A DNA stretch of 55,347 nucleotides from an uncultured Candidatus Saccharibacteria bacterium (GCA_964643995.1 CAZXUJ010000005.1:1-55347), one strand, 5' to 3'. Counted from the first letter of the stretch, positions 2,928-34,984 are shown. The notes: generated by a model not told the origin, from the sequence alone. Numbers and translations: made by a program.

Positions 2928-3755
2928 ATGCCCGAGATTTCGCTGAAACCGGAAGTGATTGCTCACCTAGGTTCGATTGATATTACCAATACTCTACTAA
3001 GTTCTGTTTTGATGTTTTCAGTTTTGTTTTTGGTGCTTTTTTTGGTTTCACGAAGCTTGAGTGTTGCTAAACCTTCTACCACACAGCTTTTTGTTGAGAC
3101 AGTTTATGATGGATTAGGAGGGATGTTTAAGGAAATCACCAGTCATCATTACTACAATTCCTATCTTTTTAGTTTTGTTTTTTCGTTTTTTATTTACATC
3201 GTCGCTTCAAATTGGTTTGGTTTGCTACCTTTTGTCAGTACGTTCGGACAAATCCATGAAAACAAAGAACATGTTGAGACGAGCACTTCGGAGGCTACAG
3301 TTATGGGGTGTATCAGAGAACGAGATTGCGTGTTAGACAGTACAGGCCATATTCAAAGAACAAATCATTTGGTTCCGGTTTTTCGTGCACCAACGTCAGA
3401 CTTGTCAGTGACCATGGCATTGGCACTTCTTTCGGTTTTTGCAACAAATATTTTAGGAATCCATTACATAGGGTTTAGCTATTTAAAAAAGTATTTTGAT
3501 TTTTCTAGCGGTATTAACTTTTTTGTTGGAATTTTGGAAATGATCTCGGAAATTGGCAAAATCATTTCCTTTTCCTTTCGATTGTTTGGTAACATATTTG
3601 CAGGAGAAGTACTGCTCACCGTTATTAGTTTTATCTCTTTTGGTGTGGCAACTTTACCTTTCATCGGACTTGAGTTTTTTATAGGAATTATTCAAGCTCT
3701 TGTGTTTTTTATGTTGACGACTGTTTTTATTAGTTTAGCTGCGGACAAACATTAA
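2928..3755 (+). CDS. atpB: F0F1 ATP synthase subunit a
   Basis: Polytopic membrane protein with the conserved FSFRLFGNIFAGE arginine motif and PTSDLSVTMALA. First gene of the atp operon. Carries an extra loop of about 40 aa (see findings). Confidence 0.9.
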   Translation: MPEISLKPEVIAHLGSIDITNTLLSSVLMFSVLFLVLFLVSRSLSVAKPSTTQLFVETVYDGLGGMFKEITSHHYYNSYLFSFVFSFFIYIVASNWFGLLPFVSTFGQIHENKEHVETSTSEATVMGCIRERDCVLDSTGHIQRTNHLVPVFRAPTSDLSVTMALALLSVFATNILGIHYIGFSYLKKYFDFSSGINFFVGILEMISEIGKIISFSFRLFGNIFAGEVLLTVISFISFGVATLPFIGLEFFIGIIQALVFFMLTTVFISLAADKH

Positions 3756-11506: not shown

Positions 11507-12052
11507 ATGGCACCGTTTAGGGAAGGCTCTGAACCTACTGTTACCGAAGAAACTTTAAAACCACAGACTATGGACGAAAGGGGTAATCCTATAGATGAGG
11601 TTTTGTTTGGACCGATTTTTGATGAAAACGATTTTGGAAGGCTTATTCTAAGTGGAATGTGGAAAGACAATATATTTGAAGAGAATATAGCGGACGCAAC
11701 AGGAAACTCAGTGATTAGATTTGTAACACGTCAAAAATTTGAAGAGCTGAAGCACGCGGCACAAGACAACATAGGTGATACCGTAAAAACACAATACACC
11801 TTACCTGAAGATATCACACCACGGGAATTCATAGGCTTTATTCATAAAGTATATGAATCATCACAAGCATATTATTCTGTAGAGCAAATACTGGCACAAA
11901 GACTATATTCAACAAATCAGCACTTACAACAAATAAAACAGCTGGCACATACACAGCTTAACAAGGGTGAACATGAGGGTATCTTAACAGGCATCGACCA
12001 AATAGCTGATGGGGTAAACAAGTTCGTAACTGGACTGGGTCTTGAGAACTAA
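11507..12052 (+). CDS. hypothetical protein
   Basis: 181-aa ORF downstream of tRNA-Arg. No recognisable motif. Confidence 0.5.
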   Translation: MAPFREGSEPTVTEETLKPQTMDERGNPIDEVLFGPIFDENDFGRLILSGMWKDNIFEENIADATGNSVIRFVTRQKFEELKHAAQDNIGDTVKTQYTLPEDITPREFIGFIHKVYESSQAYYSVEQILAQRLYSTNQHLQQIKQLAHTQLNKGEHEGILTGIDQIADGVNKFVTGLGLEN

Positions 12053-16714: not shown

Positions 16715-17374
16715 ATGAGGGAATTTATTAAAAGGAATCAACCCGTATTTATCGTAGGTGCTATTACTATTATAGTTTTTCTCGTGATTATAGGGTTAAG
16801 TCAATCAAGAGACGACAACTCGTTGTTGCCTGGACTTGTTAAAGTAGGTGAGCAGGAATTCACTCCTGAAGAAACACCTATAAAAGAACCCGAAAAACCA
16901 ATCACCGAAATGACCGCGGCCGAAATAGATAAAATGGTAGCAAAGATGGATATAACCGAAGGTAAGTACGATAATAATTACTCGTTGTTACCAGGTAATC
17001 CCGTGGATGAAGCGATGGAGGAAAAAATAAAAGACCTAGAGGCCCAGGCATATATGACACCGGATGAGGTAAAAAGCGAATTTGGGGAATTGAACATAAG
17101 TTATACGGATGAAGGCGGGTATGAACCGAGAAAATCACCGGCCTACAAGTTTCAAAACGTGACTTGGACTAATAATTCTGATCGTGAGATTAAATTGGTT
17201 CAACTTAACCCACTATTTACTGAGTTTGCCAACGGAGTAATTCTTGCACCAGGAGAATCTTATACCATGGAACTTTACAAAGAGGGTAACTTTAGATTTA
17301 CAGAAGACGAATCACGAGCATTTGGTGCAGTCACCATCACTCGAGCCGCAAAATATGAAGCGGGTCTAAACTAA
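16715..17374 (+). CDS. membrane-anchored hypothetical protein
   Basis: 219-aa ORF with an N-terminal TM helix (VFIVGAITIIVFLVIIGL). Confidence 0.5.
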   Translation: MREFIKRNQPVFIVGAITIIVFLVIIGLSQSRDDNSLLPGLVKVGEQEFTPEETPIKEPEKPITEMTAAEIDKMVAKMDITEGKYDNNYSLLPGNPVDEAMEEKIKDLEAQAYMTPDEVKSEFGELNISYTDEGGYEPRKSPAYKFQNVTWTNNSDREIKLVQLNPLFTEFANGVILAPGESYTMELYKEGNFRFTEDESRAFGAVTITRAAKYEAGLN

Positions 17375-18004
17375 AAAGGCTGAGGGACAGATTTTGCTCA
17401 AAATGCATTCAGCACATTTCGGTTTTCTTGCTATACAAACATAACGACCATGCAAAACCATTGCCGAGGAAAAATTTCTCCAATATTCCTTTGGTAACAA
17501 CTCCATCAGTTCTTTTTCGATTTTTACAGCGTTTTGTTCTCTAGTTAAGCCTAACAAGTTAGATACACGTGTGATGTGAGTATCCACGACAATACCCTCA
17601 GCAACTTCCCAAAGCTCTTGCATTATGACATTAGCACTTTTGCGAGCAATACCAGGAATTTTAAGTAGATCGTCGAAATTTTTTGGGAGTTGTCCTCCAA
17701 ATTCAGTTTCTACGACCTCCCCAGCTTTTTTTAGACGTTCCGCCTTGCCAACATGAAAATTCACGCCATGAACATCTTTAGTTAATTCAGAAAGCTCAGC
17801 ATTAGCAAAATCTTTCCAAGTCTTATATTTTTTGAATAAAGTCTTTTGAGTAATTTGGTTAACTTTCTTATCGGTGGTTTGCGCAGATAACATGACTGCC
17901 ACAGCTAACTGCATCTCATTTTCATGTGTAAGTTCTGTTTTAGGGTTAGGGTGTTCTCGTTTTAGAAGTTTTGCTACTTCAATAGCTAATTGATGCTTTT
18001 CCAT
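17366..18004 (-). CDS. nth: endonuclease III
   Basis: HhH motif LLKIPGIARKSANVIM, then VVDTHITRVSNLLGL, and a C-terminal 4Fe-4S loop CIARKPKCAECILSKIC. Confidence 0.9.
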   Translation of the reverse strand: MEKHQLAIEVAKLLKREHPNPKTELTHENEMQLAVAVMLSAQTTDKKVNQITQKTLFKKYKTWKDFANAELSELTKDVHGVNFHVGKAERLKKAGEVVETEFGGQLPKNFDDLLKIPGIARKSANVIMQELWEVAEGIVVDTHITRVSNLLGLTREQNAVKIEKELMELLPKEYWRNFSSAMVLHGRYVCIARKPKCAECILSKICPSAFLV

Positions 18005-27727: not shown

Positions 27728-27766
27728 TTAAATTAGGTATACTATCTTTGTTTTTGCTTGTTGTAT

Positions 27767-27801
27767 TGGGGAATGGTGTGACGCTTCGCTACCACCATTC
27801 C
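27767..27801 (+). repeat. duplicated 5' fragment of tRNA-Gln folded into a hairpin
   Basis: TGGGGAATGGTGT (27767-27779) is identical to the first 13 nt of tRNA-Gln (27821-27833). GGAATGGTG (27770-27778) pairs with CACCATTCC (27793-27801). Confidence 0.6.
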
Positions 27802-27820
27802 AAATAAGTTGAAACTATAA

Positions 27821-27894
27821 TGGGGAATGGTGTAATGGTAGCACGCCGCACTCTGGATGCGGAAATTGGGGTTCGACTCCCTGTTCCCCAGCCA
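27821..27894 (+). tRNA. tRNA-Gln (anticodon CTG)
   Basis: Hand-folded cloverleaf: acceptor TGGGGAA/TTCCCCA with U1-A72, discriminator G73, anticodon stem CCGCA/TGCGG with loop CTCTGGA, T-loop TTCGACT, encoded CCA. Confidence 0.9.
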
Positions 27895-27923
27895 TATATC
27901 CCAGAGAAACTCTGTATAGGATA
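27889..27923 (+). repeat. island repeat copy R0 (tRNA-Gln 3' end plus trailer)
   Basis: CAGCCATATATCCCAGAGAAACTCTGTATAGGATA shares CAGCCA.ATATCC..AGAAAC....TA.A.GAT with R1 and R2. Confidence 0.7.
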
Positions 27924-27926
27924 ATT

Positions 27927-28487
27927 CTAATTTAAAACACTTTGTAATAAGTTTTTATTATTTTTAAATATTTTTAAATTATTTCTATGGCCAACCGGCG
28001 AAATCGGGGAAGGATGATATAGTGGTAATATCTTATAGTTTCTATTTTCAATATTAACTTCAAAAATAACTCCTAACGGAATAGAAGAGTTTAAAAAATT
28101 GTTAAAAAGCTCTAAAGTTTTTACACCTAGAAGTATAAGAACTTCAAAATCATAACTCTTAAGTTGTTTCAAAAAGATTGGCCAACATTTTTCACCACAG
28201 CTTTTGAGTAACTTTCTATCCTTACCGACATAACACTTTACAAGTTCTGTAAAGCTGCAAGTTTCGACAGTTAAGCTGTGACTTTCAAGAAGCTTATTTA
28301 GGTTTTTACCAGTGGGAAGTAACTTACTATCGATAGTATAAAAGGCTTTTCCAGATTTTCTCCAACCATTTGGAGCAGGTGCTTCACCTACAATCAATAC
28401 TTTTTTACCTTTTCCACTACCTAGTTGTAAAAACTTGCTTGACGGGAAAACGTCTATATTCTCACAGTAATGTTCATGCCGATCCAT
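27927..28487 (-). CDS. uracil-DNA glycosylase superfamily protein
   Basis: 186 aa. Motif A-like GEAPAPNGW and motif B-like LYHPSP, plus a mid-protein Cys cluster CSFTELVKC...C..KC. The family is not assignable by eye. Confidence 0.65.
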   Translation of the reverse strand: MDRHEHYCENIDVFPSSKFLQLGSGKGKKVLIVGEAPAPNGWRKSGKAFYTIDSKLLPTGKNLNKLLESHSLTVETCSFTELVKCYVGKDRKLLKSCGEKCWPIFLKQLKSYDFEVLILLGVKTLELFNNFLNSSIPLGVIFEVNIENRNYKILPLYHPSPISPVGHRNNLKIFKNNKNLLQSVLN

Positions 28488-28513
28488 ATGTCTAGTATAT
28501 CAACTACGCGTAC

Positions 28514-28537
28514 ATCCTAGAGAGTGCAAAAGATAGG
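28514..28537 (+). repeat. degenerate extra half-copy of the island repeat
   Basis: ATCCTAGAGAGTGCAAAAGATAGG resembles the distal half ATCCTGGAGAAACTGCTTACAAGATA of R1 and lies immediately upstream of R1. Confidence 0.4.
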
Positions 28538-28548
28538 GGGAATTCTCA

Positions 28549-28594
28549 ACCGACGTGCTCAGCCACATATCCTGGAGAAACTGCTTACAAGATA
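28549..28594 (+). repeat. island repeat copy R1
   Basis: ACCGACGTGCTCAGCCACATATCCTGGAGAAACTGCTTACAAGATA. Confidence 0.8.
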
Positions 28595-28641
28595 ATAATG
28601 TGTTATTTTAAAATTGCAGTTAAATACTTTATAATTAGCAT

Positions 28642-29304
28642 ATGCGTAAACTAGTATTTTTGCTATTGCTAACATGTTCCATTATTGCTTATCTATATTT
28701 AACTGGTAGCTATAAAAAACCAACGCATAATCAGCTAAACGAAATGCCTACTCAAATTGAAAACAAAGCACCGTCAGAATTATCCAAACAAAATTATACT
28801 GCAAGTGAAGATAGCATTTCAGAAAATGGTTCTAATATATATATAAACCCAACTTTAAGGTATAGTTTCGAGTACTCAAGAGATTCAACTATATTCAAAT
28901 GCAAAGATATACCTTGTGTAAGTTTAGATGACCAAACCATTCGTGTTGAACCTTTGGATTTTCTTAGTATAACAGGAGATCTGAATGAGATGGATGGATT
29001 ATTAGCTGAAGATTTCTACTGTAACGCAAGTGGACCCCAGGAAAGTAAAGACTGTGTTAATGTTAAGCTCGAAAAATATACAAACAGCAACGGCGTTATG
29101 GGGTATAAGCTTTATAGAAATGTGACGATTTCTAAATGGAACCAGTCCACACAAAGATTTGATGATGAAAATTACGACGATTACGCTTTCTTATTTTCTT
29201 TGAATAATTCTCATTATCCTTCAGTAATTTTTGCTGTAGATGAGCCATCAGATGTTAACCATAATAAACTTGAAAAAATTATAAACACATTCAAGGTGTA
29301 TTAA
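28642..29304 (+). CDS. secreted hypothetical protein (island cargo)
   Basis: 220 aa with signal peptide MRKLVFLLLLTCSIIAYLY. The stop codon abuts repeat R2. Confidence 0.55.
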   Translation: MRKLVFLLLLTCSIIAYLYLTGSYKKPTHNQLNEMPTQIENKAPSELSKQNYTASEDSISENGSNIYINPTLRYSFEYSRDSTIFKCKDIPCVSLDDQTIRVEPLDFLSITGDLNEMDGLLAEDFYCNASGPQESKDCVNVKLEKYTNSNGVMGYKLYRNVTISKWNQSTQRFDDENYDDYAFLFSLNNSHYPSVIFAVDEPSDVNHNKLEKIINTFKVY

Positions 29305-29357
29305 GGTCCCTGACCGACATGCTCAGCCATATATCCTGGAGAAACCGCATACAGGAT
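29305..29357 (+). repeat. island repeat copy R2 (longest copy)
   Basis: GGTCCCTGACCGACATGCTCAGCCATATATCCTGGAGAAACCGCATACAGGAT. It contains the inverted repeat ATCCTG...CAGGAT. Confidence 0.85.
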
Positions 29358-29386
29358 CTCAAGGTATTCGTTATACTGATAACATA

Positions 29387-30127
29387 ATGTCTATACATCA
29401 ATCCAAATCAAAGTTGTTGGATAAGGTTAAAGCTTTACATAGTTTTTATCATGAAGGGAAGATCCCCACTTTATCTCAACATGAGGTAAATCCAAATTTA
29501 AATAAGGGAGATCGTTTGAACTATATATATTTCACGCTCCCAGTTTGTATAAACTTTCAACGAAGTTCTCCGGCAATGTGGCAATCAGCTTTAAAAACTT
29601 TTAATGATCCTGAAACTAACTATCTATTTTATCCAGAAAGAATAATTATTGAGCCTTTAGAAAAGATAAGAAGAGATCTGTGCAAACATAAATTAGGAAT
29701 TCAACCAAATAAACACACAGATATTTGGGTAAAGATAAGTACAACCTTGGCAAATTACTACGAAGCCGATCCAAGAAAAATCATGAAACAAGGTAACAAT
29801 GATGTAGTACTAATATTAGATATACTACAAAACTCTGAAAAAGATAGATTTCCTTATCTAAGAGGAAATAAACTGTCTAACTACTGGTTATACATTCTTT
29901 CGCATTATACCGACTTAAAACTACAGAATATGAATAGCATTTCAATAATTCCGGACACACACGTTATTAAAAGTACGCAAAAGTTAGGTTTAACTGAAAA
30001 AATAGAGACACCAGAAAATGTCATAAAGGTTTGGAAAAGTCTCCTGGAAGAATCGGATCTTTCACCTGTTGAAATGCACCCAGTATTATGGAATTGGAGT
30101 AGAAATAACTTTCTTCCAGAAGTTTAA
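29387..30127 (+). CDS. hypothetical protein, possibly an HhH-GPD/endonuclease III-like DNA glycosylase (island cargo)
   Basis: 246 aa. IIPDTHVIKSTQKLGL parallels the VDTHxxRVxxRLGL segment of Nth (compare VVDTHITRVSNLLGL in this window's nth), preceded by RGNKLSNYWLYIL. No Fe-S loop. The assignment is tentative. Confidence 0.4.
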   Translation: MSIHQSKSKLLDKVKALHSFYHEGKIPTLSQHEVNPNLNKGDRLNYIYFTLPVCINFQRSSPAMWQSALKTFNDPETNYLFYPERIIIEPLEKIRRDLCKHKLGIQPNKHTDIWVKISTTLANYYEADPRKIMKQGNNDVVLILDILQNSEKDRFPYLRGNKLSNYWLYILSHYTDLKLQNMNSISIIPDTHVIKSTQKLGLTEKIETPENVIKVWKSLLEESDLSPVEMHPVLWNWSRNNFLPEV

Positions 30128-30128
30128 A

Positions 30129-30157
30129 GGTTCCTGACCTACATGCTCAGCCAGATA
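30129..30157 (+). repeat. island repeat copy R3 (truncated)
   Basis: GGTTCCTGACCTACATGCTCAGCCAGATA starts right after the stop of 29387..30127 and overlaps the last codons of the recombinase remnant on the other strand. Confidence 0.7.
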
Positions 30158-31258
30158 GAATGAGTAGACTCAAAAACACCCGTATTAGCTTTTACACCAA
30201 TGAAATTAGCCTGTTCTAAAATCTTTTTCTTAAATTCCTCATTTCCAGACACTTTAGAACTATTTGTATTTTTAATTGCTTCAGCAAGCTTTGAAAATAT
30301 ATCTGTATATTCGTAAGTAAATTTACCATTATTAAGTTTCAAATTAGTAAATACAAGCCTGATTAATTTTCTTCTCTTTTCTGGTAACAGTTTCAGATAA
30401 GTATCTTCTGACTTTTGAGCAATATCATATAAAGCAGCAGTCTTATCATAAAAGGTTTTATCTCGTGTATTAACAGATTTTCGATGCTTTTCTACTGTCT
30501 CTCTTTCCACCATATATTCTGAGTACATCGTATTATAAAAAGACTCTGTAATCTTTCCATCTAATTTATCAGTATAAAGGGCTACAAGCCTTTTCTTGAT
30601 AGTTTCTTCACGTTTGCTAAGTTCATACGTGGCAGTTAAATAAGAACCTGTCTCAACCTCGTGTGTTTCCTTAAGTGCCTTACTTATCCAATTAAGTAAA
30701 TCTGGATCAGTAACTTTAAGTGCTTTAAAAGCTGGGAGTAACTCTTGTTCAAGTAAGTGATCTTTAATAGTACCTTTTTGAGTTCTTAGTTTTACATCAT
30801 CATCTAACCAAACCTTTATATTTCTTCCGCTGTAGCCTTTGTTTGCTACTAAAATGAACATTTCTTTTATTATTTGTGCGGTTGCTTGATCAAGCATTAC
30901 CTTTTTAACGCCTGCATGTGAATAGTTCAGGTAACCAATAGGTGCAGGAGCAGGTCGCCAACCCATCTCGCATTTAGCTCTGATACCACTTTTTACATTT
31001 ACTCCTCTATTGTCGTTTTCCAGTTTTGCTTGGGAACATAAAATCATTAAAAGAAACTTTTCTGCTGGGTTATCTGAAAATGTCTGGCTGTTAGTCTTAT
31101 ACGTAAAAGCTTTTTTCTGTCCATCAAATCTACTAATGAACCAAGGTCACCTGCATTTCTTTGATCTGTGAATCGATTGACATGGCTTGCCTCTCGTCCG
31201 ATTCGGAGCTTTTTCTTGCATACAGGCAATATTTTGGGGTGATTGCACTTTGTATCAT
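30139..31258 (-). pseudogene. large serine recombinase, decayed (internal deletion plus frameshift; zinc-ribbon region missing)
   Basis: The frame from the ATG at 31258 gives MIQSAITPKYCLYARKSSESDERQAMSIDSQIKEMQ (catalytic YxRxSS...SIxxQ), then a stop after 41 codons. A second frame resumes with ...TFSDNPAEKFLLMILCSQAKLENDNRGVNVKSGIRAK (E-helix) and continues as ORF 30139..31047. The central part of the catalytic domain (very roughly 60 aa, judged by eye) and the Cys-rich zinc ribbon are absent. Confidence 0.75.
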
Positions 31259-31301
31259 CTAACACATTGATGACGCTAATGCTTAGCTCAGTCAAGTTAT
31301 T

Positions 31302-31526
31302 CTAAGAGTTAAGTGTTTCCTGAATAGCTAGTATTATTTGGTCTACCTTACTAGCCCAATCATCGATATCGTGCATCTTAAACTGTTTTCCAGTTAGGTT
31401 ATCTACAAGATCTGTGTGTTGCTTTAGTTTAGAGAGAAATACTTCTTGGTATTTCTTAGCAGTATCACTTTCATTTAGCCAACCATAGTTAAACACCAGT
31501 TTTCTATCAGTTAACAAACTATACAT
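31302..31526 (-). CDS. hypothetical small protein (island)
   Basis: 74-aa ORF upstream of the recombinase remnant. No motif. Confidence 0.4.
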   Translation of the reverse strand: MYSLLTDRKLVFNYGWLNESDTAKKYQEVFLSKLKQHTDLVDNLTGKQFKMHDIDDWASKVDQIILAIQETLNS

Positions 31527-31553
31527 AGAAAATTTCGTATAGAGTCAATAAAG

Positions 31554-31796
31554 ATGGATCTGTTTAGGGTTGTAACGGCAACGGGAGATGTATCAAAAGC
31601 ACCAGCAGTAGAATCTGCAAAAGAATTTCTAATACACTCAATTATTGATTTTGATAAATTTCCTAACAGCAAACATGACCTTACCATAAAACAAGAGCTG
31701 GAAAAGTCCCTAGCTGAATTGGAAAAACTTCAATACCCCGGACACAGGCCAAGATGGGCTGAAAAAATCTTAACTGCAAGATGTAGATTAATCTAA
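31554..31796 (+). CDS. hypothetical small protein (island)
   Basis: 80-aa ORF divergent from 31302..31526. No motif. Confidence 0.4.
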   Translation: MDLFRVVTATGDVSKAPAVESAKEFLIHSIIDFDKFPNSKHDLTIKQELEKSLAELEKLQYPGHRPRWAEKILTARCRLI

Positions 31797-31845
31797 ACTG
31801 GAACAATACTGGAAGAACTAAAGAAAAGAAAACTTGTTTAGCATA

Positions 31846-31867
31846 ACCGATATGCTCAGACAAATAA
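31846..31867 (+). repeat. island repeat copy R4 (degenerate)
   Basis: AACCGATATGCTCAGACAAATA, compared with ACCGACATGCTCAGCCATATA in R2. Confidence 0.5.
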
Positions 31868-31889: not shown

Positions 31890-32396
31890 ATGCAAGTTCC
31901 TTACAAACAACGGTGTTCCTGGGTGCCACTTAATGACGATTTATATATAAAATACCATGATGAAGAGTGGGGGAAGGCAGTATACGAAGACAAAAAGATC
32001 TTCGAACATTTAACACTAGAAACATTTCAAGCAGGGCTGTCCTGGAAAACCGTTTTATACAAAAGAGAAAACTTTAGGAAAGCTTTTGACAATTTTGATC
32101 CCAAAAAAATCTCAACATATGACGAAAGGAAAATAATAAGTCTTATTAATAACCCAGGGATAATCCGCAACAAGTTGAAAATTTTGGCAACAGTCAATAA
32201 TGCAAAAGCGTTCCTTAAGGTACAGAAAGAGTTTGGAACATTTTCTAAATATATGTGGATGTGGAAAAACAATGTTGCGTGGGCAAAAGATCTGAAAAAA
32301 AGAAATTTCAAGTTTTTAGGACCAACAGTTTTGTATGCTCATATGCAGGCTACGGGTATGGTGAATGACCACTCTCCAGATTGCTTTTGTAGGTAG
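31890..32396 (+). CDS. tag: DNA-3-methyladenine glycosylase I
   Basis: CSWV...YHDEEWG...FEHLTLETFQAGLSW...GIIRNKLKI...FLGPTVLYAHMQATGMVNDHSPDC matches the Tag family along its whole length. It is somewhat shorter than my recollection of E. coli Tag. Confidence 0.85.
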   Translation: MQVPYKQRCSWVPLNDDLYIKYHDEEWGKAVYEDKKIFEHLTLETFQAGLSWKTVLYKRENFRKAFDNFDPKKISTYDERKIISLINNPGIIRNKLKILATVNNAKAFLKVQKEFGTFSKYMWMWKNNVAWAKDLKKRNFKFLGPTVLYAHMQATGMVNDHSPDCFCR

Positions 32397-32458
32397 ATTT
32401 AGATAGATAATGACTTTTCTAAGGAAACTATATTTTTTTCTATTTCGTCTAAAAGTGG

Positions 32459-32524
32459 AGTGCTAGGATGACAACGCTTGAACTATTCAAGACGGCGGAG
32501 TTCTGTTGCGATCCTAGTTTTAAC
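32459..32524 (+). terminator. structured hairpin plus T-run downstream of tag
   Basis: CTAGGAT ... ATCCTAG outer stem with an inner CTTGAA/TTCAAG hairpin, followed by TTTT. Confidence 0.5.
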
Positions 32525-32597
32525 CCCTGCCTTAAAACTCTCAAAAAAACTTACACCGTGCTCTTTTACTTTTTGAATTGATTATGCTCTTCAAAAG

Positions 32598-32623
32598 AAA
32601 AGACTTCCTTTCGGAAGTCTTTT
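32598..32623. terminator. bidirectional-type terminator hairpin (A-tract, stem, T-tract)
   Basis: AAAAGACTTCC-TTTC-GGAAGTCTTTT. Confidence 0.5.
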
Positions 32624-32780
32624 CAGGTACCCCTATCACTTGATGTTGAGACCGAAGTCTTAACAGTGATAGAAGTATGGATACAATACATAGTGAAATT
32701 AATTTTGTCAACACTTCATTTTCAACTATAATGGTTGACTGAAAAGATACATTGCGCTAGCTTTTCTGATTGGCACTACG

Positions 32781-33882
32781 GTGTTTTTATATTACAACAA
32801 AATTTGGGCACCCGAGAATACCTCACCAACATTACCAATATTGAAACGAGAGAAAATTTCAGTTTTTGAGGAATTAATAAAATCGAAGGAGACTAAGAAA
32901 ACAACAGAGGAAATAAAACCTCAAGTAATATTGGAGACCCCACCAACGCAAAAAAACCTTTCTAAAAATTATCATGTTTTTCAAACGTTTAACAATTGCG
33001 GCCCTGCCGCTATGTTAATGGCACTATCGTACTATGGTATAAATAAGACCCAATACGAATTAGGGCAATTGTTAAGACCATATCAAAATCCACAAGGTAA
33101 CAACGACGATAAATCGGTTACTTTGGAGGAAATTGCAGAACTATCTAAAGATTACGATTTGATACCATTTAGAAGACCAAACGGTAATATTGAGACCATA
33201 AGGCTGTTCATAACCTATGAGATTCCAGTGATAACTAGAACTTGGTTGGGAGTAAAAGAGGATATAGGCCATTACCGTGTGATAAAAGGTTGACGACATA
33301 AACAAACAAATTATTCAAGACGACTCTCTGCAGGGGCAAAATATAAAATATTCATACGCCGAGTTTATGGAACTTTGTGGTCACTTCGGCTATGAGTACC
33401 TAGTTCTAGTACCAAAGGATAAGGAGGAGATTGCGATCCAAATTCTGGGCGAAGATTACGACGAAACATTAGCGTGGGACAAAACAGCAGAAAATTTTCA
33501 ATCAAAATTGCAAAAAAGCCCGGATGATATATATGCAAGATTTAACTTAGCAGTAGCGCTGTATAATTCGGGGAATTATGCGCAATCTGTGGCTGAGTTT
33601 AAAAAGGTGGAGGATCAGCTACCTTTCCGTACCCTTTGGTATCAAATAGAACCAAGCGAGGCTTACTACGAACTGGGTGATTATGCAAGAGTTTTTGAGA
33701 TCATCGATAGAATCCTTGGCTATCATAATAGGGTGTTTTCGGAACTTTACTTGATAAGGGGGCAAATCTACCTGAAGCAGGGTAACAATAACCTAGCAAG
33801 ACAGGAGTTTGAAAAAGCTGTCTTTTATAACACGTCTATGCAATCTGCGACTAAGGCTCTCAATTCTGTAAATATTCCTTAA
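32781..33882 (+). pseudogene. C39-like cysteine peptidase fused to TPR repeats, interrupted by a frameshift
   Basis: ORF 32781..33293 has the catalytic context NCGPAAMLMA and GHYRVIKG, then TGA. The +1 frame continues without stops from 33292 (DDINKQIIQDDSLQGQ...EFMELCGHFGYEYLVLVP) into ORF 33367..33882, which is TPR-like. The N-terminal signal-anchor codons (KRYIALAFLIGTT) lie upstream of the first canonical start codon. Confidence 0.6.
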
Positions 33883-34984
33883 AAAAATTTACCGTACGCT
33901 GCATGGCGAGTTCGAAATAGGGGGAATTTATGTTGTGTCCACCACCCTCATATTCGTACAATTCAGCGCGTTTATTAGCATCATCTAGAACTTTTTTCAG
34001 ATCTCTAGAATATCCAACATCTACTACATCATCATTTACAGCATGATGAAGCTGTATTGGCCTAGTAAGGTATTGTATATTTTTTGTTAACGAAACTGCA
34101 GACCAAAAGGTGTCATTAAAGTCTATTTTTTCCGGTTCCGACCTTAGCAACTGAACCTGATCTGAACGCTCGCGCACTCTATCAGCATCTTGTTCTTCCG
34201 CATCTTCATTGCGAGGACGTGGCACATAGCTGTTATCGCTTATGCGATATTTGGCAAAATCCTCATAGCTATAAACAGCACCACCCCAAATTACTCCAGC
34301 CTTTACATCATCTGATACCAACATAGCACGTAAAACTAGATTACCGCTCATACTATGCCCCCACATACCAATTTTTTCTGGATTTACTGTTGCTAACCTT
34401 TGTAGGCTTTTTAAGGCATTGATAGCATCCACAGTATATGCATTGGAAAAATAGGACCCCGAAGGAACACCTTCGGAATTACCGTGTCCACGAAAATCGA
34501 TTTTAAAAACAACAAAACCTTTACGTGCAAGGCTATCTACATAGGCCTCATACTTTTCGGTGGTAACATATGCATCTGGGGAGATATAGCCATGATTGAA
34601 AACTATGGCGCTAAAACCTCCCTCGGGAGGCTCTTCGTCAGGAATAGTTAACAAGCCGTAAACTTTATTGGAGTCACTTATATAGCTGGCAATATATTTT
34701 TTGTAATTTGCGCCTTTTTGGAGCTCTTCCTCAAGGGTGATATCACTTGCCTCAAAATCCAGCGAGCGCAGGTAGTCTATGGAGATTGGGGAAATAAATG
34801 CGTCTTTGGGGTTGAGATAACCAATTTTGGGCAATTCATAAAATGATAGGGAAACATATTCATTGTTGAGTTGAGCCTCATAAGCTTTGTAAACAAATAA
34901 AATTAGAAATGCTAAGGATACTGCTAAAATTACTGTTTTTTTCATACTAACTAGTATAGTTGACAATCCAGAATTTTTGTTCAA
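33860..34984 (-). CDS. secreted alpha/beta hydrolase (S9 / dienelactone hydrolase-like)
   Basis: Signal-anchor, nucleophile elbow GHSMSG, and a downstream D...H context (HHAVNDDVV, GGGHNI). Confidence 0.75.
   Translation of the reverse strand: MNKNSGLSTILVSMKKTVILAVSLAFLILFVYKAYEAQLNNEYVSLSFYELPKIGYLNPKDAFISPISIDYLRSLDFEASDITLEEELQKGANYKKYIASYISDSNKVYGLLTIPDEEPPEGGFSAIVFNHGYISPDAYVTTEKYEAYVDSLARKGFVVFKIDFRGHGNSEGVPSGSYFSNAYTVDAINALKSLQRLATVNPEKIGMWGHSMSGNLVLRAMLVSDDVKAGVIWGGAVYSYEDFAKYRISDNSYVPRPRNEDAEEQDADRVRERSDQVQLLRSEPEKIDFNDTFWSAVSLTKNIQYLTRPIQLHHAVNDDVVDVGYSRDLKKVLDDANKRAELYEYEGGGHNINSPYFELAMQRTVNFFKEYLQN

Follow-up and report, generated by a model that had tools for sequence, protein, structure and literature searches.

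The DNA downstream of a tRNA-Gln gene in an uncultured Candidatus Saccharibacteria bacterium (GCA_964643995.1 CAZXUJ010000005.1:1-55347; the whole stretch of 55,347 nt is called the window here) is divided by a short direct repeat into small, mostly one-gene intervals, which raises the question of what the repeat is and how the genes between its copies came to lie there. A preliminary description of the locus had proposed a chain of units anchored at the tRNA with an integron-like layout, and had named serial accretion of miniature integrative elements and a genome-wide REP-like element as alternatives.

Anatomy of the repeat and its units

Pattern and nhmmer searches recovered the five same-orientation copies listed in the preliminary description (R0 to R4), each where it had been placed and all on the plus strand (Table 1), and the nhmmer profile found no copies beyond these in the 55-kb window. 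A 27-mer core pattern with up to three mismatches matched R1 and R2 only (0.00 expected by chance), and the 17-mer ACCGACATGCTCAGCCA, with the same tolerance, matched exactly R1 to R4 (0.04 expected by chance).

Table 1. Features of the tRNA-Gln locus, in coordinates of the window
Feature	Position	Strand	Remarks
tRNA-Gln(CUG), anchor	27821-27894	+	ARAGORN; Rfam tRNA, 61 bits
R0, core and right arm P'	27889-27923	+	nhmmer model positions 23-57, E=1e-6
Unit 1, UDG cassette	27895-28565	+	closes with R1 P arm and core
UDG gene	27927-28487	-	Pfam UDG, 3e-16
R1, full site	28512-28594	+	nhmmer E=2e-17
R1 upstream motif	28512-28524	+	ACATCCTAGAGAG
R1 P arm	28536-28559	+
R1 core	28560-28565	+
R1 P'	28566-28594	+
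Unit 2, one gene	28566-29329	+
Unit 2 gene, 220 aa	28642-29304		hydrophobic N-terminus
R2, full site	29305-29358	+	nhmmer E=1e-19; 27-mer, 0 mismatches
R2 P arm	29305-29323	+
R2 core	29324-29329	+
R2 P'	29330-29358	+
Unit 3, one gene	29330-30153	+
Unit 3 gene, 246 aa	29387-30127
R3 P arm	30129-30147	+	nhmmer E=4e-7 (P arm and core)
R3 core	30148-30153	+
LSR pseudogene	30142-31258	-	mosaic of two lineages
Unit 4 small ORF, 74 aa	31302-31526	-	no family match
Unit 4 small ORF, 80 aa	31554-31796	+	no family match
R4, last recognisable site	31845-31862	+	nhmmer E about 0.02-0.03
Tag glycosylase	31890-32396	+
C39-like peptidase	32781-33882	+	split

The repeat is modular, with a left arm (P; GGTTCYNGACCGACATGCT) of ~25 nt on the element side, a 6-nt core, CAGCCA, and a right arm. 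The core at 27889-27894 is the final 6 nt of tRNA-Gln, its last acceptor bases with discriminator G and CCA. As right arm, some copies have a conserved inverted repeat (P') and others have unrelated DNA (X) or the 3' coding end of a large serine recombinase (LSR) gene. Three site types, B-core-P' (at the tRNA), P-core-P' and P-core-X, part exactly at CAGCCA, and similarity ends at this hexamer in ~25 sites; tRNA-Gln would be the chromosomal left arm (B) of an attachment site. The central ~17 nt of the P arm hardly vary, in non-coding context, between lineages that share only 50-70% protein identity. Some P arms reach ~75 nt through upstream motifs (ATCCTRGAGAR and TGTCTCATTT iterons), an extension on one side that exceeds the typical length of an LSR site. 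The site is conserved in sequence and its sole inverted repeat is P', which opens many unrelated units right after the core; a dyad symmetry, GGTTC…(core)…GAAAC, is weak and was judged by eye.

R0 is a B-core-P' junction, in which P' is the inverted repeat TATCC..GGATA, and like junctions lie at the tRNA-Gln of two related genomes (L006 and L053). R3 is a P-core-LSR junction; to the right of its core is the opposite-strand 3' coding end of a recombinase gene that ends …SIWLSM*, with the stop codon (30139-30141) falling within the R3 P arm. R4 combines a degenerate P arm (AACCGATATGCT) with the core variant CAGACA (2 mismatches in 17). The copies had been described as decaying with distance from the tRNA. 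This decay is not monotonic: R2 is the best copy and beats R1, R3 is undecayed and only R4 is truly degenerate. R3 looks short only because the end of the recombinase coding sequence occupies its right side, and most of the apparent trend is an artefact of this adjacency.

As described previously, the repeats bound discrete, mostly one-gene units. Exactly one ORF apiece is found in intervals 1 to 3 (UDG, 220 aa and 246 aa), and interval 4 holds a recombinase remnant and two small ORFs. No family match was found for the 220-aa protein. The 246-aa protein had been called HhH-like, which was not confirmed (no Pfam, PHROG or PDB match; AF2 model pLDDT 34). The abutment of stop codons and repeat was verified in both units concerned, the TAA of the 220-aa gene (29302-29304) being followed directly by the R2 P arm (GGTCCC) and that of the 246-aa gene (30125-30127) by one A and then GGTTCC. 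In L011, ~3 kb downstream of tRNA-Gln, lies a homologue of the 80-aa ORF that is 63% identical. The island is indeed more AT-rich than its flanks (33.7% GC vs 38.4% in the remaining window) and ranks lowest in GC among 206 equally long sliding windows, which makes it the most AT-rich 4-kb stretch; the remainder is housekeeping DNA and encodes ATP synthase and PFOR. No recognisable site was found in 31890-33859, which is probably an older stretch of the variable region. Its Tag glycosylase and C39-like peptidase are missing from the matching interval of relative L045, where 11 unrelated genes, with no site, lie between tRNA-Gln and the S9 peptidase orthologue; synteny with L045 resumes at this S9/S15 peptidase (window 33860-34984).

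Arrays at the same site in related genomes

The gene order AF1845-VanW-NYN-tRNA-Gln is also present in L001, L006, L011/L012, L045, L049 and L053. Syntenic arrays, each with different single genes, were found in at least four other WWE3-type genomes, the same site recurring behind the syntenic tRNA-Gln in L006/L018, L011/L012, L001/L020 and L053, and same-site arrays were also found in other CPR MAGs (L003, L009 and L014). When the syntenic locus was compared among genomes, the AF1845-VanW-NYN-tRNA-Gln flank was constant and unit content differed. The sites of an array share one strand and are spaced 0.4-1.2 kb apart, and MAGs with WWE3, Saccharibacteria and Patescibacteria labels carry a near-identical site. 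Of 15 inter-site intervals in seven loci, 12 contained exactly one ORF of at least 60 aa; 8 of these 12 single ORFs have the orientation of the site, and most of the 8 end within ~20 nt of it. Among 185,579 species representatives, each matched genome had one locus, always an array. A dispersed repeat of the REP/BIME type was rejected, the repeat being confined to this locus in 55 kb and to one stretch in each CPR genome matched among genome and metagenome contigs.

The UDG cassette is common to the window (27889-28565) and L006 (3981-3315), as a 679-nt block that is 70% identical. The homology spans exactly core to core, and the neighbouring units in L006 differ on both sides; with this and the undecayed R3, the earlier argument that copies decay with distance as new units enter beside the tRNA finds no support. 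The cassette has diverged about as much as core genes (UDG, 69% at the amino acid level; NYN, 67%) and thus gives no sign of recent movement.

The large serine recombinase and its overlap with the site

The only recombinase found in the window is the serine-type pseudogene, and no Phage_integrase (PF00589-type) match was obtained among the window's 40 largest ORFs. Two pseudogene segments, 31258-31151 and 31119-30772, correspond to residues 1-36 and 104-219 of 430-aa CPR LSRs (83% and 90.5% identity to P0004), and a third, 30780-30142, corresponds to residues 312-524 of the WWE3 LSR P0003 (53.5%). The gene is frameshifted and has lost the zinc-ribbon region and, from the catalytic domain, residues ~37-103. 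Neither a circular form, nor an empty site in the same strain, nor an excision variant was observed, and the only hints of excision are contig breaks, which fall at the tRNA 3' end in L054, a related strain, and within the LSR pseudogene in L055.

Intact relatives of the recombinase (P0002, P0003 and P0062) carry PF00239 and PF07508, in line with the serine-integrase plan of a catalytic Ser domain at the N-terminus, a recombinase domain, a zinc ribbon and a C-terminal coiled-coil region; P0003 matches Pfam Resolvase and Recombinase and a PHROG integrase (7e-71). Three LSR genes, namely P0003 (in L023), the window gene at R3 and that of L056, stop within the core and P arm in one frame. The C-terminus of the intact P0003, WLSMSV*, is encoded by the core and P arm. 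In L052, the frame of P0062 runs over the core into antisense tRNA-Gln(UUG), and the LSR at the syntenic tRNA-Gln of the WWE3 relative L049 ends …WLGDRDSNP…, crossing CAGCCA into antisense tRNA-Gln. Among 149 sequences taken as the best representatives of this LSR C-terminal region, at least 40 have such antisense-tRNA tails. The overlap of family genes with the site or the tRNA supports the earlier suggestion that the local serine recombinase family is the enzyme family relevant to the locus. The complete LSR element of L023 has a NUDIX cargo gene beside a weak distal P arm; no P' was found inside this element, the only full one whose limits could be set. The L023 and L024 elements carry a primase/helicase replication module. 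Most arrays seen, those of L003, L006, L053 and L011, showed no LSR within the DNA compared around them.

Probable accretion at tRNA-Gln, its alternatives and related systems

We consider it likely that the locus is a site-specific accretion array of LSR elements targeting the extreme 3' end of tRNA-Gln. The repeat reads as an attachment site rather than as a displaced tRNA end, and since related genomes have other units at the same place, the locus appears to be a hotspot of site-specific gene capture, known in its general kind but here unusually small and integron-like. Of the alternatives named before, serial accretion of miniature integrative elements fits best. Strand exchange would have to fall within the 6-nt core, and integration there would keep tRNA-Gln intact, the element landing between the tRNA and the P-core junction. 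Repeated integrations would produce the order tRNA-core-P', unit, P-core-P', unit, P-core-LSR..., P-core-flank. In the window there are three one-gene modules without an LSR (UDG, 220 aa and 246 aa) and one decayed LSR element. An LSR probably catalyses exchange at the core, and the LSR-less units may have come by the same reaction, in trans or co-mobilised as cis-mobilisable modules. The array is presumably now frozen in this genome, since its only LSR is dead. Canonical serine integrases recombine attP with attB only, need two half-sites and leave no long direct repeats; under these rules, insertion beside an occupied tRNA (B-core-P') and variable X arms would need Ccr-like permissiveness or another route. 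The array implies pairings beyond plain attP x attB, sites that are normally ~40-50 bp with an imperfect dyad and a central dinucleotide.

It is improbable that the units are only relics, each the distal leftover of a complete ~8-kb LSR element at tRNA-Gln whose backbone was deleted later, with one-gene units that were never independently mobile and an array that is inert today. Backbone loss from the L023 element, with its NUDIX gene beside the distal P arm, would leave a one-gene unit; the window LSR is a deletion mosaic of two lineages, indicating heavy decay at the locus; R4 is degenerate; and the UDG cassette dates back to the species split. However, random deletions should give LSR fragments of varied length, whereas the ~25 sites break at CAGCCA. 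The 12 of 15 units that are compact, intact single ORFs ending at the site, the opening of many unrelated units by a second module, P', that was not detected in the full L023 element, and the near-invariant, non-coding P-arm heart across diverged lineages also argue against relics.

It is very unlikely that the sites are served by another recombinase (tyrosine, IntI-like or unknown) from a different part of the genome, the LSR genes being cargo or independent elements that favour the same tRNA. Most arrays are without a recombinase in the DNA compared, and long direct repeats and one-sided conservation are commoner in tyrosine-recombinase/attC-type systems. Against this stand the lack of a Phage_integrase match among the window's 40 largest ORFs, the three LSR genes that stop in the P arm in the same frame, the LSR relatives that run over the same core into tRNA-Gln and the absence of a GTTRRRY/RYYYAAC core at the unit boundary, which is CAGCCA. 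A generic intergenic element that is no recombination site (REP-like, a terminator, a small RNA or a tRNA-like gene) is scarcely credible and largely refuted. The P' arm is an inverted repeat (6-bp stem, 83% paired) and the repeat end, …GCCA, resembles a tRNA 3' end; yet P' showed no covariation above shuffles, the repeat has no T-run, the island has no terminator call, no Rfam match to the repeat was found at E ≤ 1 and the putative T-arm, as read from the sequence, is unpaired. The repeat also has a single locus in the window and in each matched genome, and such an element would leave the similarity breakpoints and the LSR overlap unexplained. Promoter-like matches in the array were not commoner than chance.

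An accretion array of this kind seems best read as a miniaturised counterpart of Dehalococcoides ssrA islands, SCC composites and tycheposons. In Dehalococcoides, tandem CcrB-like LSR (DsiB) islands, LSR-less units included, lie downstream of one small-RNA gene, and some units without an integration module are read as cis-mobilisable (McMurdie et al. 2011, PMC3146451). There too, the repeat joins the RNA gene 3' end to a conserved element-side motif upstream, unmatched in the RNA gene; the LSR gene adjoins attL on the reverse strand, pointing to the RNA gene; and content differs between strains. The target there is tmRNA, whereas here it is tRNA-Gln; the 20-bp repeat compares with only 6 nt common to the RNA gene here, and the multi-gene islands with single-gene units of 0.4-1.1 kb. 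In the present arrays, moreover, the crossover site lies inside the LSR reading frame, a second small recombinase of the DsiA/CcrA kind was not encountered and the hosts are CPR bacteria. SCC and SCCmec form composite islands at rlmH (orfX) with CcrAB or CcrC, and Ccr is permissive for several site pairings. Shared features are large serine recombinases, use of the 3' end of a conserved gene that is not inactivated, direct repeats bounding the elements and tandem arrays with recombinase-less pseudo-SCC units (also described in PMC3146451). Unlike here, the target is a protein gene, the elements are 3-60 kb with repeats of about 15-18 bp, and site and recombinase gene do not overlap.

Tycheposons are tRNA-adjacent islands of Prochlorococcus, a minority of which use large serine recombinases (bioRxiv 10.1101/2020.12.28.424599). 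Successive integrations push older elements inward, the islands hold degenerate integrases and repeat remnants, and a primase/helicase module is present, as in the L023 and L024 elements. They differ in having mostly tyrosine recombinases, partial tRNAs as repeats and multi-gene units, with no conserved 60-100-nt element-side site common to one-gene units. CIMEs, whose accretion-mobilisation with streptococcal ICESt1/ICESt3 has been shown experimentally (reviewed in PMC5704250), are likewise att-flanked recombinase-less modules in tandem with an integrative element, and can be moved along by outer-site recombination; they depend on a tyrosine integrase, target the 3' end of fda and are larger, whereas the present array is described from sequence.

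With integrons, the array has in common a single anchor site, variable unit 5' ends, contents that differ among relatives and compact, mostly single-ORF, mostly co-oriented units, each closed by a conserved site. The differences are that the recombinase here is of the serine and not the tyrosine (IntI) type, that a tRNA 3' end serves as anchor in place of attI beside intI, that the site lacks the R''/L''/L'/R' layout and GTTRRRY and is conserved in sequence where attC is conserved in structure, and that no sign of a folded single-stranded substrate or of a Pc promoter common to the units was seen. Integron membership was rejected, as neither an IntI-type tyrosine recombinase (among the window's 40 largest ORFs) nor attC architecture was found, and of the integron-like layout there remain the compact single-ORF arrays that vary among relatives. 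From the preliminary description overall, the tRNA-anchored chain and serial accretion are retained, and integron membership, the REP-like element and the decay argument are set aside.

More tentatively, and with the odds somewhat against it, the array may represent a serine-recombinase analogue of the integron in CPR bacteria, in which a tRNA-Gln-targeting LSR, resident or visiting, would capture and reshuffle one-gene cassettes in trans, each bearing a P-core-P' site of ~60-100 bp, with the 3' end of the tRNA as an attI-like entry. If this is true, the near-identical site across WWE3, Saccharibacteria and Patescibacteria MAGs would mark a cassette pool common to CPR lineages. Because the LSR frame crosses the crossover site, integration would also rewrite the C-terminal tail of the LSR, which could couple integration state to recombinase activity.

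The repeat array and its modular site

Five same-strand copies of a repeat, R0 at the end of tRNA-Gln(CUG) to the most distal R4, had been claimed in the preliminary description, and the five were recovered at those places, with no further copy in the 55-kb window, by a repeat finder, by pattern searches and with an nhmmer profile. Within the window, a 27-mer with up to three mismatches retrieved R1 and R2 (chance expectation, 0.00), while the 17-mer ACCGACATGCTCAGCCA at the same tolerance retrieved R1 to R4 (chance expectation, 0.04). The gene content described for the intervals was likewise confirmed: each of the first three contains a single open reading frame (ORF), for a UDG (Pfam, 3e-16), a protein of 220 aa and one of 246 aa, respectively, and in the fourth lie two small ORFs and what is left of a serine-recombinase gene. 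Two genes end at the repeat or 1 nt ahead of it, in line with the reported start of the repeat at two stop codons. The AT-richness noted by eye is also real, with a GC content of 33.7% in the interval versus 38.4% in the remaining window, the lowest among 206 sliding windows of equal length. Outside the interval, the window has the genes of an ordinary chromosome, among them those for ATP synthase, PFOR and glycosyltransferases. For the 246-aa and 220-aa proteins, sequence searches of Pfam, PHROGs and PDB returned no match that would suggest a function, and an AF2 single-sequence model was unusable (pLDDT, 34). Promoter and terminator matches in the island were no commoner than in shuffled sequence.

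Alignment of the window copies with copies found elsewhere revealed directly that the repeat is modular. It consists of a left arm, P (consensus, GGTTCYNGACCGACATGCT), a 6-nt core, CAGCCA, and a right arm whose kind varies among copies; in R0 the core is the tRNA end itself, comprising the last acceptor bases, discriminator G and CCA. Three junction types were seen, namely tRNA-core-P' (R0), P-core-P' (R1 and R2) and P-core-X (R3 and R4), where P' is the inverted repeat TATATCCTGGAGAAAC-N4-5-TACAGGATA and X is any other right side. Similarity between copies breaks at CAGCCA every time, and the right side of R3 is the coding 3' end of the opposite-strand recombinase gene, so R3 is not a decayed copy. 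The ORF at R3 terminates within the P arm, where the stop codon of …SIWLSM* is located. Since R2 is in addition better preserved than R1, and true degeneracy is found only in R4, the decay with distance from the tRNA that had been described is not real.

Other readings of the repeat were considered. The P' stem is 83% paired in 11 copies, and in the same copies no covariation above shuffles was found; P' has no T-run and no Rfam match. Rfam searches of 24-36 kb (E ≤ 1) returned two tRNAs and chance-level leader matches and left the repeats unmatched, and single-copy folding z-scores were inconsistent. An RNA or terminator role is thus unsupported. The P arm was also considered as a displaced 3' half of tRNA-Gln; this was rejected because the matches are limited to GGTTC and CAGCCA and the would-be T stem is unpaired.

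Several further features of the site were observed. Ahead of many P arms stands a conserved extension, TTTTTATACT followed by one to three TGTCTCATTT iterons and then ATCCTRGAGAR; R1 has only the last of these. The 75-nt P-arm extension exceeds the usual serine-integrase site in length. It may serve as an operator, as a promoter facing outward, or as the place where an accessory or directionality factor binds. In the WWE3 locus L001 the core at tRNA-Gln is followed by a second type of right arm, …TTTCACTGTYACA…, which also follows the core of an internal site in L003, a locus labelled Saccharibacteria, so right arms also occur in shared families. In L007, a shorter version of the WWE3 locus L053, CCCTGACCGACATATATAACC lies upstream of a phosphoribosyltransferase-like gene with 82% amino acid identity to the first cassette of the related WWE3 locus L006; it looks like a scarred site in which the P arm and right arm persist and the core has lost GCTCAGCC.

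Two observations concern the surroundings of the array. A C39-like peptidase is split into two ORFs, possibly a gene disrupted within the variable region. About 40 nt upstream of tRNA-Gln, a copy of the first ~14 nt of the tRNA (TTGGGGAATGGTGT) is followed by its complement, CCACCATTCC, giving a leader hairpin. The same design is present upstream of tRNA-Gln in L053 and L052 and absent in L001, L006, L011, L045 and L049; it may be a leader structure or a relic of another element.

Positions of features in the window and in related loci
Feature	Locus	Position	Strand	Remark
tRNA-Gln(CUG)	window	27821-27894	+	ARAGORN
Copy of tRNA start	window	27764-27800		compare 27818-27833
UDG unit	window	27889-28565		70% identity to L006 unit over 679 nt
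UDG unit	L006	3981-3315
Stop codon of ORF at R3	window	30139-30141
Recombinase lineage junction	window	30772-30780		near 30775
End of contig L055	window	30878		inside recombinase pseudogene
C39-like peptidase	window	32781-33882		ORFs 32781-33293 (Pfam Peptidase_C39_2) and 33367-33882
Sanitation genes	window	27927-28487; 31890-32396; 17366-18004
Sanitation genes	L009	684-1313; 191-661
Sanitation gene	L003	1974-2420
Sanitation gene	L023	785-1312
Sanitation gene	L053	1458-2150
P-arm extension	L023	8612-8660
P-arm extension	L009	~1390-1440; ~170-210
P-arm extension	L014	~11880-11910
P-arm extension	L003	~3530-3560
ATCCTRGAGAR at R1	window	28512-28524
Second right-arm type	L003	~1925-1890
CCCTGACCGACATATATAACC	L007	6411-6430		= L053 ~2952-2971
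Recombinase tail example	L049	1-1413

Recombinase genes that run through the site

The large serine recombinase (LSR) remnant of the window is a mosaic of two unrelated lineages. Its N-terminal part corresponds to residues 1-36 and 104-219 of an abundant ~430-aa CPR family (83% and 90.5% identity to the member P0004), and its C-terminal part to the 213 C-terminal residues of another lineage, typified by the WWE3 protein P0003 (53.5% identity). This fusion within the pseudogene indicates that two different LSR elements once lay in tandem and were joined by deletion. P0003 is intact (PF00239 and PF07508; PHROG integrase, 7e-71), and its gene is the terminal one of a ~7.9-kb element whose other genes include a primase-helicase, a NUDIX and an S24 repressor-like gene. 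The protein ends in …WLSMSV*, and its last codons and stop are the core and P arm themselves (TGGCTGAGCATGTCGGTCTAG); beyond the stop follow the conserved P-arm extension, here ATCCTGGAGAAG, and two TGTCTCATTT iterons. Besides window R3 and P0003, the contig L056 provides a third LSR gene ending in core and P arm. L021 was not counted as a fourth; it has the frame …IWLSMSV* with no LSR similarity left.

Fusions of LSR genes to tRNA sequence were also seen directly. P0062, a related LSR, reads …SPWLADRDSNP… through an antisense tRNA-Gln(UUG), across the same core, and the LSR at the syntenic WWE3 tRNA-Gln of L049 ends …SSWLGDRDSNPGF…. An exhaustive search was made with the C-terminal 219 residues of the window remnant, and tails were sorted in the best 149 representatives: at least 40 had an antisense-tRNA tail, 14 a conserved …DFRT..W… tail and 2 WLS[MI]SV, the other 93 being different or truncated. 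The Trp codon, TGG, reads CCA in antisense, and the tails run into tRNA or P arm; the frame of this clade thus runs through the crossover point, and its usual target is the 3' end of a tRNA. Among viral contigs, a related-locus search with P0003 alone gave no match, and an LSR-alignment search gave only relatives of 27-35% identity, none with a P arm and one ending in an antisense-tRNA-like tail.

The tail depends on the sequence beyond the crossover. Integrated LSR copies carry the antisense-tRNA tail WLG.RDSNP…, copies beside a cassette P arm end in SMSV*, and a ~35-aa …WL..DFRT..W…PE… peptide is conserved in some members (examples are P0242, P0248, P0255, P0297, P0316, P0337 and others; P0244, P0293 and P0062; and the L049 gene). 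Because the LSR ORF crosses the crossover site, integration would swap the recombinase tail, a possible switch on LSR activity or directionality.

Variable units behind a conserved tRNA-Gln

A degenerate 21-mer was used to scan 185,579 species, each represented by one genome. The scan returned 11 stretches, 6 in CPR metagenome-assembled genomes (MAGs) and 5 high-GC chance matches; a metagenome scan added a few CPR contigs, mostly duplicates of those genomes. Each CPR genome gave a single stretch, inside which the profile found further same-strand copies spaced 0.4 to 1.2 kb apart. The alternative of a genome-wide REP-like element is therefore excluded as far as sampling allows. The site is nearly identical across MAGs labelled WWE3, Saccharibacteria and Patescibacteria. 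All 17 viral contig matches to GACCGACATGCTCAGCCA fall in a single phage coding region of high GC content (55-68%) that lacks a tRNA, and they are unrelated.

The earlier interpretation is supported in part. Serial accretion of elements at tRNA-Gln, which had been proposed as another explanation, holds: unit content varies behind a fixed flank, one cassette is shared from core to core, and LSR genes are tied to the site. Four arrays, those of L053 (which gives L007 its full context) and of the WWE3 MAGs L001, L006 and L011, begin at a tRNA-Gln(CUG) with the same AF1845-VanW-NYN synteny as in the window, and comparison of the syntenic locus, including L045 and L049, directly revealed different genes behind the conserved tRNA. 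Where the window has its UDG, 220-aa, 246-aa and dead-LSR units, the gene lists open with phosphoribosyltransferase-like, UDG and DUF3891 genes in L006, DUF7668 and DUF6064 in L053, ~260-aa, 92-aa and 91-aa genes in L011, and an amidase in L001; in L049 the LSR gene stands directly against the tRNA. L045 carries 11 unrelated genes and no site up to an S9/S15 peptidase orthologue (62% identical to that of the window).

The alignment of the UDG units of the window and L006 starts at one core and stops at the next, and their neighbours differ on both sides; this unit, the sole one shared, is decisive evidence for cassette units. Across seven loci, 12 of the 15 inter-site intervals contain exactly one ORF of at least 60 aa (405-1102 nt); 8 of these 12 ORFs are co-oriented with the site, and most of the 8 end within ~20 nt of it. 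The units are discrete cassettes, not random debris. The genes tagged include those for DNA glycosylases, NUDIX hydrolases, other hydrolases, a methyltransferase and a phosphoribosyltransferase. By plain listing, genes near sites are rich in DNA-base and nucleotide sanitation functions (UDG; Tag, adjoining R4; HhH-GPD; and four NUDIX genes in four loci), and a chromosomal HhH-GPD gene is also present in the window.

Two contigs gave a hint of variation within the population. L055, a contig of another run with 100% identity, breaks off within the LSR pseudogene, and L054, from a related strain (86-94% identity), stops precisely where tRNA-Gln has its 3' end (…CAGCCAT); these assembly breaks may reflect population variants.

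Proposed mechanism and relation to known systems

We propose that the LSR would exchange strands within CAGCCA, between the tRNA end as an attB-like site and an attP-like element site (P-core-right arm), the tRNA staying intact because the core is shared. Successive events would stack units and leave internal P-core-P' and P-core-LSR junctions. The window array was probably built likewise, from the LSR element that is now unit 4 and from one-gene units without an LSR, which may have come by capture in trans or by co-mobilization, as proposed for cis-mobilizable elements; since its only LSR is dead, the array is presumably now frozen. Classical serine integrases pair attP with attB only and need two half-sites. 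A permissiveness like that of Ccr would be needed for right arms that vary and for insertion next to a tRNA already occupied.

Among described systems, the ssrA islands of Dehalococcoides come closest (PMC3146451). Like the array here, these are tandem and bounded by the 3' end of an RNA gene, have an LSR (CcrB-like in that case) next to attL on the reverse strand and a conserved element-side motif just upstream of every repeat, and include LSR-less units, read as cis-mobilizable (PMC3146451). The logic of SCC composite islands and tycheposons is also that of the window locus. The integron-like layout proposed earlier holds, in that the locus is arranged in the manner of an integron; membership does not, as there is no tyrosine recombinase among the 40 largest ORFs of the window and no attC architecture. 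New here are the host group (CPR/WWE3), the target (6 nt where tRNA-Gln ends), an LSR frame that crosses the site and, above all, the reduction in size to one-gene cassettes with a ~60-100-nt site. Full-text searches of the literature turned up no account of arrays like these.

The genomes of CPR/Patescibacteria are tiny, and little is understood of how they acquire genes. The locus represents a defined, sequence-recognizable gene-acquisition route for CPR, made up of a hotspot at tRNA-Gln, a portable site of ~60 nt that marks single accessory genes, and one specific LSR clade, the gene of which spans its own attachment site. The site profile is directly usable for mining the accessory gene pool in CPR metagenomes, and an LSR whose 6-nt core lies at the end of a tRNA is a compact candidate from which a programmable or portable tool for integration might be made. 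One-gene cassettes may be mobile in trans through a serine recombinase; if the units do move in this way, the array would become the first example of an integron-like cassette system that relies on such an enzyme.
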